58,094 nt of DNA from a virus (Duplodnaviria; Caudoviricetes), in IMG/VR virus record IMGVR_UViG_3300030110_001023, positions 1 through 58,094 of that record, one strand, 5' to 3'. Numbering within the stretch: position 1 is the first letter of the stretch; each line of letters opens with the position of its first letter. Both the position numbers and the translations under genes were made by a program. Positions 1,955 to 5,160 of the stretch are shown one piece after another. The notes beneath the pieces were generated by a model that saw nothing but the letters and a program-made list of their open reading frames with translations, had not been told where the DNA came from and ran no database searches.

Positions 1955-2037
1955 TGTGTCCTCCTTTCGGGTTGGTTGAGATGATGGTGTAATTGACACC
2001 GTCGAGGGCACCCAGCGGGTGCCCTCTGCGTTGGCAA

Positions 2038-2226
2038 CTATCGACGTAGCCTCGCCATCTTATTGAGGTGACGCTGGCGTTCTTTGAAACGCTGCTCACG
2101 TCGCTTGTTTCTCCGACGAACGTGGGCGATGTACGGGTCAGGTTCGTAGGTGCTGTAGAATGCCAAGGCAGCGGTGAACACTGCCGCGACAACGAAGATT
2201 GAGCAAAATAAAATGACTGCGCTCAT
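2038..2226 (-). CDS. small membrane protein (N-terminal TM, basic tail)
   Basis: Hydrophobic N-terminus, RBS GAGGA, operon packing. Confidence 0.6.
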   Translation of the reverse strand: MSAVILFCSIFVVAAVFTAALAFYSTYEPDPYIAHVRRRNKRREQRFKERQRHLNKMARLRR

Positions 2227-2228
2227 GA

Positions 2229-2474
2229 TCAGTTCCTCTCGTTTTTGGGTGTGTACTTTTCCAAGTGCAACACGTTGTTAACGTACCATCTCTTGTGCCC
2301 ATGCTTGTGAACATGCAGAGAGTGCTTGCCCTGCCTTGGCGTGGCCCTTTTGTCAGCCGTGCCATCTTTTTTTCTAGGCTGGTACAGGTTGGTGACGACA
2401 GTCCAGCCAGAGCGGCGAGGGTGTGTCTCGCGGCTCTGGCCTACGCAAACGCGACCATATGGTGTATAATTCAT
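2229..2474 (-). CDS. hypothetical basic protein
   Basis: ATGA overlap with the stop of the upstream gene at 2471-2474. Confidence 0.55.
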   Translation of the reverse strand: MNYTPYGRVCVGQSRETHPRRSGWTVVTNLYQPRKKDGTADKRATPRQGKHSLHVHKHGHKRWYVNNVLHLEKYTPKNERN

Positions 2475-2734
2475 GATCCATGCCCCCTGCGTTTGAACAC
2501 CGATTGCCAATTGTTTTTGTCTAGCAGGTGGTCAGCCAGCAGCCCCATCAGGTCTGCCTTGCAGTCCTCCAAGGTGGCAGCATATGTCACCTCAAGGACG
2601 TGGCCGTCCGCTGTGACATAGCCCGCCCAGCGCAGGTCTTCGAAACCTTCGGCAGCCTCATGATCTGGGGCAGCGTTGTATTGCCGAAACTGCGGCTGCG
2701 TAACGTCCATCGACGTGAAATATTTTTTGTTCAT
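2471..2734 (-). CDS. hypothetical protein (87 aa)
   Basis: Start MNKKYF at 2734 with RBS GAAAGG, just downstream of the hammerhead cleavage site. Confidence 0.6.
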   Translation of the reverse strand: MNKKYFTSMDVTQPQFRQYNAAPDHEAAEGFEDLRWAGYVTADGHVLEVTYAATLEDCKADLMGLLADHLLDKNNWQSVFKRRGHGS

Positions 2735-2770
2735 GTTATGCCTTTCGGTTGATGTTGATATTGAGTGGTT

Positions 2771-2839
2771 ACCCAGAACGCTGCGCAGCGGTGCAGCGTT
2801 TTCGGCCCGTACCAATGGGCGCTCATCAGTGGGCTTGGT
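2771..2839 (-). ncRNA. type I hammerhead ribozyme
   Basis: Minus strand: ACCAA-GCCCA-CUGAUGA-GCGCCC(AUUGGUAC)GGGCC-GAAA-ACGCUGC(ACCGCUGC)GCAGCGU-UC^UGGGU. Full core, three stems, and loop II UUGGU complementary to the 5' ACCAA. Confidence 0.88.
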
Positions 2840-3026
2840 CTGCCTCGCATTCGGGGCAGATCGTGGGGGTCTCGAATGCCTCTGTGTAATACGCGCAGTC
2901 GTCGCAATCGGGGTCGATCTCAATGATCTCAACCTCCCCAGCTTCCTCCATGTGATCCATGAAGTTTTCAGGGGTAAGCTTGGACAGATCAACGTCAGCG
3001 GTAAGCGCATAAGTTTTGTATTTCAT
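2826..3026 (-). CDS. small acidic zinc-ribbon protein
   Basis: CDDC...CPEC; RBS GGAG; its TGA stop lies inside the ribozyme CUGAUGA. Confidence 0.65.
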   Translation of the reverse strand: MKYKTYALTADVDLSKLTPENFMDHMEEAGEVEIIEIDPDCDDCAYYTEAFETPTICPECEADQAH

Positions 3027-3043
3027 TTCAACTCCAATCGTAA

Positions 3044-3059
3044 AAGTTACCAGTGACTC
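3044..3059. promoter_or_regulatory. 16-bp palindromic site, copy 2 (AAGTTACCAGTGACTC)
   Basis: Matches consensus RAGTYAC-CA-GTRACTY; 18 bp upstream of ATG 3026. Confidence 0.6.
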
Positions 3060-3061
3060 AG

Positions 3062-3088
3062 AAAGTGTGCCGCCCCCGAAGGGGCGGC
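3062..3088 (-). terminator. GC-rich hairpin with UUCG tetraloop (terminator or attenuator)
   Basis: GCCGCCCC-UUCG-GGGGCGGC just after the stop at 3095; U tail is weak. Confidence 0.55.
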
Positions 3089-3094
3089 GTTGGA

Positions 3095-3706
3095 TTAGAC
3101 TGCCTGTTTGAGGACAGTCACGTTGTCGTCGTATCCGCTGCCGACCTTGGCGAGGTCAGCGGCGTTCATGACCAATTCCCAGACAGCGGTCTTGCCTTCG
3201 ACGGTATCGACATCGTGACCGTTTGCCTTGGCAAGCTTCTGGGCGAGGGCGACGATCTGCTCTTCGTCGCTCAATTCCTCCTTCGGGTTCAGGAAGGCGA
3301 CCAGCTTGTTGAAGCTGTTGATCTGCAACTCTTCGCAGCGTTGGTTGATCGTGTCGCGAAACTTTCCAGCGGTCAGGTTGTCGCTGTAGCCGCCGTCTCT
3401 TGCGACGTTGATGGTGCTGAGAAATTCAGGATGCTTGGCAAGCTTGAGGGCATTTTCTGCCAGCTTCTTGCCTTTGCCGCTGGCATTCTTCTGCCCCAGC
3501 ACATCGAAGCACACCGCATCGCGGAACTGGCCAGCCTTCTTGCTGCCCTTGCGGAAGTTTTGGCGAGCAGCTTCAACCGCCAGAATGCCGATCAAGGTGA
3601 ACTTGTCAGCCTCGACAAATTGGTTGGCGCGGAATTCAGAGATCTCAGCTTCTTTGCGTGAGATGTCGGCGGCAACGTGAGCAGCTTGTTTGATGATGTT
3701 TGTCAT
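3095..3706 (-). CDS. hypothetical early protein (203 aa), first gene of the early operon
   Basis: Start MTNIIKQ with RBS GAAGGGA; strong GC3 codon bias. Confidence 0.75.
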   Translation of the reverse strand: MTNIIKQAAHVAADISRKEAEISEFRANQFVEADKFTLIGILAVEAARQNFRKGSKKAGQFRDAVCFDVLGQKNASGKGKKLAENALKLAKHPEFLSTINVARDGGYSDNLTAGKFRDTINQRCEELQINSFNKLVAFLNPKEELSDEEQIVALAQKLAKANGHDVDTVEGKTAVWELVMNAADLAKVGSGYDDNVTVLKQAV

Positions 3707-3730
3707 GTGTGTGATCCCTTCGATCTGAAT

Positions 3731-3800
3731 GTGTTTCGACCATGCTTGGTCCAAGGGGCAGGATTGCCCTCATCAGGGGTGCAGCATCAGCACCCGACAC
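3731..3800 (-). ncRNA. type III hammerhead ribozyme with an extra hairpin inserted in the core
   Basis: GUGUC^-GGGUGC(UGAUGCU)GCACCC-CUGAUGA-[GGGCA(AUCC)UGCCC-CUUG]-GACCA(AGCA)UGGUC-GAAACAC. Loop I AUGCU is complementary to AGCAU at loop II. Confidence 0.78.
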
Positions 3801-4103
3801 TTGCGGGGTGGTCTCTCAGTCAGCAACCGTTCGTTGCCTCGCACGTCCAGCTTGCTATCGCTGGGGGTTCGCGGCGGCAGAGATGCCATCCCCGTGATCC
3901 CCGTTGCCAACGTCCTTTCATCGTTGTCGTGCAGCGGGGTCTCATTCTGGCGGGGCTGTCACACCTTACGCTCTTGTCCGTTTGCTAGGACACCAGCCTC
4001 ATTGCTGATGCGGTCCCTTCCCGGATCGCTGTGGTTCGCTTTGTTTCTGGCTAGCGTTGCCCAGGGGGTGGCCCCCGCTCGGTGACTGATGTGTGCCGCC
4101 GAG
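3796..4103 (-). ncRNA. putative ~300-nt structured non-coding RNA or leader
   Basis: No credible ORF; many hairpins and possible 5'/3' closing pairing; lies between a promoter and a hammerhead cleavage site. Confidence 0.55.
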
Positions 4104-4109
4104 GACCTA

Positions 4110-4138
4110 CGTATGGACCCACTCGGTGGGCTTGTCAA
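4110..4138 (-). promoter_or_regulatory. sigma70-type early promoter
   Basis: TTGACA-17 bp-CATACG on the minus strand; a -10 element lacking the last T is common in Alphaproteobacteria. Confidence 0.55.
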
Positions 4139-4410
4139 ACACAAATTGTCACATTATCGAAAGTTTTTTTTCGGTTTGAGGCTGACTGCGGGTTTCCAGT
4201 GGCCACCAAATCCCATTGATTTGTCAGGAGGTGAATTTAAGCTGTTTTTTGGACGTGTTTTTACATGCGCTGCGAATCGTCATTTTCGGGCGCTACTGCA
4301 AGAAAAACGAGTCGGTTTGTAATGTTTTCAATGACTTAATTTTTTTGGGGGTGTCGACCTGGTCGCACGCTGCGTGTCACCCCCGCCTGAAAAAAAAGGA
4401 GATTCGGACG

Positions 4411-4905: not shown

Positions 4906-5160
4906 CAGCACGATGCGCTGCGCGGCGGGCGGCGGGATGGCAGTCAGGCAAAAAGACCCCGCCCCTAAACGGCCAACTGTTTCTGGCGTCAGAAGCCGAG
5001 GGGCCACCCCCTGTGCTGCGACACAGCGCGTGTCAGGCACGCATGTATGCTGTTTCACTCAAACGATTAGCTGATTTTAATAGACCCCCCCTATTACTTC
5101 TTTTTCCCAATGGGATGAAGTGTGCCCCCACCCCTATAAAACAATCTGACATGATGTAGG

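Follow-up and report, generated by a model that had tools for sequence, protein, structure and literature searches.

It is quite probable that positions 2834..2766 on the minus strand of the window (the whole stretch of DNA analysed, a complete virus record of 58,094 bases) encode a genuine type I hammerhead ribozyme, which belongs to a very large family of hammerheads located between phage genes and would split an early polycistronic message, and that the overlap between its core and the stop codon of the preceding gene is a by-product. The site was read from the sequence as a type I hammerhead at 2834..2771, with CUGAUGA, GAAA, three stems and C17 at 2776. The features of the site and its surroundings are as follows:

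2826..3026, minus strand: upstream gene of 66 aa with two CxxC pairs (zinc-ribbon-like), from ORF reading
2835..2839, minus strand: 5' ACCAA, located in the last codons of this ORF, a perfect complement (5 bp) of UUGGU (2815-2811) in loop II
2830..2834, minus strand: 5' strand of stem I, GCCCA, pairing with 2775-2771 (5 bp, the outermost being G-U)
2823..2829, minus strand: core strand C3-A9, CUGAUGA, in which the required C3-U4-G5-A6-N7-G8-A9 is present
2804..2822, minus strand: stem II and loop II, with G10.1-C11.1 at 2822/2804, the bulged C2821 and four G-C pairs
2800..2803, minus strand: core strand G12-A13-A14 and A15.1 (GAAA), from sequence reading and covariance model
2777..2800, minus strand: stem III hairpin of 8 bp (2800-2793 with 2784-2777), counted inward from A15.1-U16.1, with an 8-nt loop (2792-2785)
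2775..2776, minus strand: predicted cleavage site in the triplet UUC, C17 being 2776 and the cut falling at 2776/2775, from hammerhead numbering
2771..2775, minus strand: 3' strand of stem I, UGGGU, from sequence reading and covariance model
2766..2769, minus strand: 3' tail ACCA, complementary to UGGU (2814-2811) of loop II (4 bp), following stem I after one unpaired A
2471..2775, minus strand: predicted start of the 3' cleavage product, a 41-nt leader (2775-2735) and then an ORF of 87 aa (2734-2471)
3731..3800, minus strand: second hammerhead, type III, with C17 at 3796, about 25 nt upstream of the ATG (3706) of a 203-aa gene

The topology is assigned to type I because stems II and III are capped by loops and stem I is open to the flanking RNA. 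The G-C pairs of stem II join 2820-2817 to 2808-2805 and enclose a loop II of 8 nt (2816-2809), which contains UUGGU. The closing pair of this stem, G2822-C2804, is present and is followed by the unpaired C2821, a bulge that does not occur in the orthologues L133-L136. The 5' strand of stem I (2834-2830) doubles as coding sequence and supplies the upstream ORF with its final two sense codons (Ala-His). Membership of the hammerhead class also calls for U16.1 and for a nucleotide other than G at position 17, which are found here at 2777 and as C2776, respectively. The original prediction had described a type I hammerhead with CUGAUGA, GAAA and stems I-III, and had placed the cut of a UUC triplet between 2776 and 2775. 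All of these elements are present, the predicted cut agrees with hammerhead numbering, and every coordinate given in that prediction is correct on the minus strand.

A generic type I descriptor asked for the core and GAAA, for stems II and III with 4 bp or more each, and for a stem I of 4 bp; stem II was allowed one inserted or bulged base, stem III had to be closed by A-U, and position 17 could be anything but G. The descriptor matched the window once, at 2834..2771, and gave no match in 300 block-shuffled windows. Viral contigs were scanned with a pattern of fixed stem I, core, CGAAA and UCUGGG, which matched at least 120 stretches; the 20 fixed bases of this collecting pattern were taken from the window, and the family sample is thereby selected. 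The scan yielded at least 148 matches across all loci, 145 of them among the matches listed having a stem III of at least 4 bp, and the family amounts to at least 107 unique sequences, the window included. The traits common to the family are a CCCA/UGGG stem I, capped stems II and III, and a pseudoknot between loop II and the 3' tail. As a control, the same pattern was applied to 596 Gb of bacterial genomes, where only 11 of 94 matches had both stems. Since the control matches were mostly without both stems, the viral matches are considered real and virus-enriched: the collecting pattern alone does match by chance, but the viral matches do not look like chance.

Covariation was assessed in an alignment of 106 family sequences among the matches listed, from which the window was left out. 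In these 106 sequences 86.1% of cells were paired (69.1% in shuffles), and the covariation score of 0.386 (0.118 when shuffled) was equalled by 0 of 500 shuffles. Controls in which the structure was slid along the same alignment reached at most 40% paired. The signal is carried by stems II and III, four of the five stem I pairs (CCCA/UGGG) being fixed by the collecting pattern and thus uninformative, while the fifth varies across the family (GU, AU, UA, CG and GC were all seen). A lack of covariation among homologs had been named in the original prediction as part of what would count against it; covariation was found, both in this score (0.386 against 0.118) and in compensatory changes of the orthologues. 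A covariance model built from the 106 sequences without the window (R1) scored the site at 53.7 bits (rough E 2.5e-13), the next match reaching 10 bits; some of the score of the site is inherent in the design, since the window had supplied the 20 fixed bases of the pattern.

The Rfam models gave a different picture. No hammerhead was detected in the whole window at gathering score, nor in 2650-2950 at E<=10, where neither RF00163 nor RF03152 matched the site, so that the check suggested in the original prediction, a search with the Rfam hammerhead models, was negative at both settings. When RF00163 (Hammerhead_1; gathering score 34 bits) was run alone, the site was unscored, and the best score in the record was 11.1 bits elsewhere. 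Rfam at gathering score likewise returned no hammerhead match in 20 family loci with at least 22 such ribozymes, and the syntenic relatives scored only 25-28 bits with RF03152 (RAGATH-1; gathering score 56.3). Because at least 22 clear family members are missed in those 20 loci, the silence of Rfam was rejected as counter-evidence. The failure of RF00163 reflects the scope of its 45-position model, since other family members were missed too.

Five loci that encode the zinc-ribbon protein (L132-L136) were identified in a metagenome scan. L132 is identical to the window and lies on an independent contig. In L133 (cut short), L134, L135 and L136 the ribozyme is kept at the same place, 3' of the zinc-ribbon gene, and its stem II is straight, the window and L132 having one extra C. 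Compared to the window, L135 shows two compensatory double changes in stem III, a shorter loop and a CUC triplet, and L136 has one change in loop II; the triplet UUC is also found in L134 and L136, and the outer (fifth) pair of stem I is A-U in the orthologues instead of the G-U of the window. Conservation by coding alone was considered and rejected, as the ORFs of the orthologues end before the element.

One downstream gene is common to the window and L136 and another to L134 and L135, and in L134 the same leader stands before a different gene that starts at the same ATG. Since the downstream gene differs between orthologous loci, the ribozyme is situated at a cassette-exchange junction. Comparison of the window with its syntenic relatives L005 and L008 showed 3085..1955 to be a variable stretch between two conserved blocks. 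Three further loci (L002-L004) were dropped as zinc-ribbon relatives; they are alike only over a CPEC-type stretch and have no hammerhead. A blastn search of 2400-3200 against a phage GenBank collection gave no match, and an orthologue-specific pattern had 0 matches in viral contigs.

According to its homologues, the zinc-ribbon ORF is a real gene: its protein is matched by three homologous protein clusters at 60-94% identity, two of which contain an in-frame insertion of 22 residues. Its matches to known domains were limited to sub-threshold, rubredoxin-like ones. On the other side of the ribozyme the next ATG is at 2734, which sets the leader at 41 nt (2775-2735), close to the roughly 40 nt expected in the original prediction, and this leader carries GAAAGG, a Shine-Dalgarno-like sequence. 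No relative of the 87-aa protein was found by the locus search, and the flanking proteins gave nothing above threshold with PHROGs, Pfam, NCBIfam and Atlas. A start preceded by a Shine-Dalgarno sequence follows the cut in 100 of the 107 family members among the matches listed, at a median of 30 nt. Both sides of the family ribozymes look maximally compact.

The element is located in a leftward early operon, within a variable region of small genes between the conserved 203-aa gene and a conserved AAA ATPase gene. Syntenic relatives carry two to three hammerheads in the same operon. The promoter and terminator scan detected no terminator-like site on the minus strand, and a terminator reading of 2834..2771 was rejected on this ground.

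The type III hammerhead at 3731..3800 has an 18-nt insert containing a hairpin between A9 and G10.1. At the position of this insert there is one U in L005, and the insert of L008-L010 is 19 nt long and has a covarying hairpin. The ribozyme is kept in L005 and L008-L010 with covarying stems, and its loop I can pair with loop II (AGCA). RF00008 matched it at 3728-3803 with 25.4 bits, below the gathering score of 48.5. This second hammerhead would be part of the same processing system as the type I copy.

Several further observations were made in and around this operon and in other loci. A type I hammerhead following a 47-aa ORF in L008-L010 (L008 1247-1330) is a presence/absence polymorphism; L005 (4830-4870) lacks this ribozyme and has just the stop codon and UCCCA ahead of the leader of the next gene. 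A partly palindromic motif of about 15 nt (GTTACCAGTGACTCA type) lies 3' of the hammerhead in L005 (about 5118-5135) and L008-L010, and a motif of the GTTACCAGTGACTCA type is found in opposite orientation at 3040-3060 of the window, just upstream of the zinc-ribbon gene. On the minus strand of the window, 4108-4137 contains a TTGACA hexamer followed by a small GCCCAC/GUGGGU hairpin, and the matching place in L005 reads TTGACG, 17 nt, TATATA. The region 4108-4137 is probably the promoter region of the operon, and a consensus promoter scan of 2300-4300 found no site. Other loci were found to hold known RNAs at the Rfam gathering score, namely two group I introns in L025 (11878-12946; 83.3 and 65.1 bits) and sRNA-Xcc1 in L033 (6343-6426; 74.5 bits). 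The viral contig L063 holds three type I hammerheads of the CCCA/UGGG family within about 800 bases (413-1190).

Two stretches next to the ribozyme are complementary to loop II, and the family was used to distinguish between them. Among the matches listed, 35 of 107 members have, 2 nt past the end of stem I, a tetramer that can pair with loop II, and ten different tetramers occur; in 1000 permutations the number of such members averaged 8.0 and never exceeded 17. On the 5' side, ten offsets gave 1 to 8 complementary members of 107 among the matches listed, against means of 2.4 to 4.5, i.e. no enrichment. Because only the 3' tail is enriched for complementarity, the tertiary contact of the family is assigned to loop II and the 3' tail. 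The ACCA of the window lies exactly in the enriched 3' register, and it is thus the predicted, family-typical pseudoknot partner; in L135 the tail is ACCG, which is wobble-compatible.

The original prediction had proposed a pseudoknot between UUGGU of loop II and the 5' ACCAA. Its complementarity does exist in the window, but the partner seen family-wide is the 3' tail ACCA (35 of 107 among the matches listed against a mean of 8.0). The 5' ACCAA is kept in L135 and L136, where it is non-coding, and is replaced in L133 and L134 by GCUAA, which pairs via two wobbles. For the lineage of the window these few independent sequences are weak evidence of a 5' partner. The 5' and 3' pairings use the same bases of loop II and are therefore mutually exclusive.

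The upstream ORF (3026..2826) stops at UGA 2828-2826, which is U4G5A6 of the core, and U7G8A9 provides a second in-frame UGA directly after it. The claim that the zinc-ribbon ORF reads into stem I and terminates at the UGA of CUGAUGA was thus exact. The position of the stop is not a conserved feature in the five orthologous loci, where it starts at +1, -8 or -12 relative to C3. Where the window has CAA and reads on for three codons, L133 and L134 have a TAA that starts 8 nt 5' of C3; in L135 and L136 the C-terminus is different and the stop is 12 nt 5' of C3. The core UGA may also terminate one protein cluster, whose sequence finishes in Thr-His. The end of the ORF therefore slides over 13 nt among the orthologues, with the ribozyme fixed.

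Upstream ORFs were then counted in the family from mechanical ORF calls; an ORF was counted if it had 40 codons or more and its end fell between -40 and +6 relative to C3. Among the matches listed, such an ORF was present in 96 of 107 family members, and its stop codon begins at -7 (32 members), -8 (22), +1 (20, the window included) or between -9 and -29 (22). Hence 20 of these 96 ORFs end at the core UGA and 54 more abut stem I, again among the matches listed. The overlap of stop and core is explained by the fact that, of the three possible reading frames, one always meets a UGA in the core, and it looks like a movable ORF end that falls back on the built-in UGA of the ribozyme. Judged by these counts and by the orthologues, about one upstream ORF in five ends within the ribozyme, which is a common side effect and an evolutionarily unstable one.

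From the sequence, structure, conservation and covariation described above, we infer cleavage, its products and its purpose as follows. Most likely, the ribozyme cuts the polycistronic early mRNA between cistrons. The RNA would fold once RNA polymerase has passed about 2766, and the ACCA tail would dock on loop II, aligning stems I and II. Self-cleavage of the leftward polycistronic early transcript would then occur after C2776. Hammerhead cleavage produces a 2',3'-cyclic phosphate on the upstream product and a 5'-OH on the downstream product. The zinc-ribbon message would be left complete, with its stop codon 50 nt 5' of the cut, and its 3' end would consist of the stem II and stem III structures with the cyclic phosphate, while the next cistron would begin with the 5'-OH and a fixed leader of 41 nt.

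The likely purpose would be to split a polycistronic message into units of independent stability and translation. A possible added role would be to provide each swappable gene cassette with a 5' end that is independent of context. In engineered ribozyme insulators such as RiboJ, a hammerhead before the coding sequence fixes the 5' end whatever lies upstream. The likeness is in the fixed 5' end at a cassette-exchange junction; RiboJ is a synthetic part, and the insulating role of the window element is a predicted one.

An unlikely alternative, in line with the inference of the original prediction, is that the ribozyme is gated by translation: ribosomes ending the zinc-ribbon ORF would occupy stem I and the core, how fast or how far the RNA is cut would reflect the translation of the upstream gene, and this coupling would be the selected function and not mere processing. 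The arrangement in the window would allow for it, as the stop is in the core and the last two codons form the 5' strand of stem I, and in the family 74 of 96 upstream ORFs among the matches listed have their stop at +1 or no more than 8 nt 5' of C3. From its established footprint size, a terminating ribosome covers a nearby stem I. Because the stops are so close in 74 of 96 cases (among the matches listed), a terminating ribosome would cover stem I nearly family-wide. Moreover, the 5' ACCAA in or near the ORF end, which is retained in orthologues, can compete with the 3' tail for loop II. The exact overlap varies, however, with stops at +1, -8 or -12 among the five orthologous loci, and the 5' element has no family-wide signal. 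Tight abutment is also the prediction of simple genome compaction, and the downstream side is equally economical (median leader 30 nt). A literature search found no such coupling reported for bacterial or phage hammerheads.

Transient interference of ribosomes with folding, here and in most of the family, is plausible on the positions of these stops, and if terminating ribosomes affect the folding of the ribozyme, they would do so throughout the family. A still more doubtful extension is that loop II has two exclusive partners, and that ribosomes strip off the 5' competitor and melt stem I, setting which pseudoknot forms and when the cut occurs. If true, the window element would be a natural translation-sensing hammerhead, and stop-flush phage hammerheads could be ribosome-gated insulators at gene-cassette junctions.

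Improbable as well is the view that the window copy is a weakened or inactive relic of the family ribozyme, crippled by the bulged C and the UUC triplet; it would then persist because it forms a stable structure at a 3' end or between genes, or simply as a linker conserved where recombination occurs. The extra C is indeed missing from all four orthologues L133-L136, but the same bulge position occurs in six of 107 family members with different stems among the matches listed (L036, L084, L087, L094, L127 and the window), and the bacterial MAG contig L201 has two copies in which the start of stem II is also bulged. Its recurrence in six family members and in L201 suggests that the bulge is tolerated.

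The triplet is likewise rare, with A15.2-U16.2 (UUC) in one of 106 family members and C-G (GUC) in 101 of 106 among the matches listed; UUC nevertheless obeys the NUH rule, and L134 and L136 use UUC and L135 uses CUC. In minimal hammerheads UUC is a slower triplet. The bulge and the UUC triplet may make the window copy slower than its orthologues. When folding is left unconstrained, the structure of lowest energy differs from the hammerhead (-27.5/-27.8 against -24.9 kcal/mol; z = -0.72): in this alternative, part of the core pairs with loop II and the stability exceeds that of the hammerhead secondary structure by 2.6 kcal/mol, in a comparison that leaves the pseudoknot and tertiary contacts outside. 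Against a relic stand the intact state of every core position and the identical sequence in L132, an independent contig.

Two observations on sequence variants are added here. One of the two copies in L201 is identical to the copy in the viral contig L094, which suggests that L201 is a prophage. A single U is inserted between A9 and G10.1 in 13 of 107 members among the matches listed (e.g. L015, L018, L029 and L065), which are otherwise canonical type I. A viroid hammerhead is known to carry one extra base at the same position.

There is a negligible probability that the site resembles the hammerhead consensus by chance, or that it is simply a hairpin or a terminator: although Rfam is silent on the site and the z-score of the fold (-0.72) is not significant, there is no terminator-like site on the minus strand, and the chance reading is effectively refuted by the R1 score (53.7 bits against 10 for the next match), the compensatory changes in the orthologues and the 0 matches in 300 shuffles.

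The preferred reading, a family hammerhead that would process an early phage message, has precedents. Perreault et al. (2011; PMC3088659) described multiple hammerheads flanking prophage genes, some of them active in vitro and in E. coli, as well as pseudoknots in all three hammerhead types, and proposed mRNA processing for the clustered prophage hammerheads. A 2019 review (PMC6765202) states the idea of polycistronic processing and describes the purpose as still undefined. A 2026 paper gives 1,305 hammerheads from deep-sea RNA viromes. Hence the literature already covers the hammerhead class, its occurrence in phages, the clustering of copies and the pseudoknot, the phage arrangement having been published in 2011. 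As far as the available text of PMC3088659 goes, the window element resembles its phage and prophage clusters in ribozyme class, in its intergenic position in polycistronic phage transcripts and in the presence of several copies per operon, and differs from them in the bulge after G10.1-C11.1, the UUC triplet and the upstream ORF that runs into the core.

The type I topology is common to the window element, RF00163 and RF03152 (RAGATH-1). The order of elements in the RAGATH-1 consensus, i.e. stem I, CUGAUGA, a short stem II, GAAA, a long stem III and GUC, is the same, and the 5' hairpin of RAGATH-1 is not found in the window element. The type I hammerheads of fungal RNA viruses (PMC13725137) also have a long helix III, fill a short intergenic region and are cut a few to tens of nucleotides before the next start codon. 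They differ in that they belong to RNA viruses of eukaryotes and are tied to cap-independent initiation, whereas the window is a DNA phage with a Shine-Dalgarno-led gene. In the available portions of PMC3088659, PMC13725137 and PMC6765202, neither a count of stops within the core nor a gating of phage hammerheads by ribosomes was found, and the supplementary alignments of 2011 may hold the CCCA/UGGG family.

Taken alone, the element is one more phage intergenic hammerhead. The useful side results are the blind spot of Rfam, the statistics of stop positions and the sliding ORF end. The first of these concerns a virus-enriched type I family of at least 107 distinct sequences, which lies below the Rfam thresholds and is overlooked by routine annotation. 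Gene callers and ribozyme finders should expect ORFs and ribozymes to overlap, because the core UGA terminates 20 of 96 upstream ORFs and another 54 lie directly against stem I (among the matches listed). The set of orthologues, finally, would provide a compact natural system for asking what the hammerheads of bacteria and phages do, a question that the 2019 review calls open.
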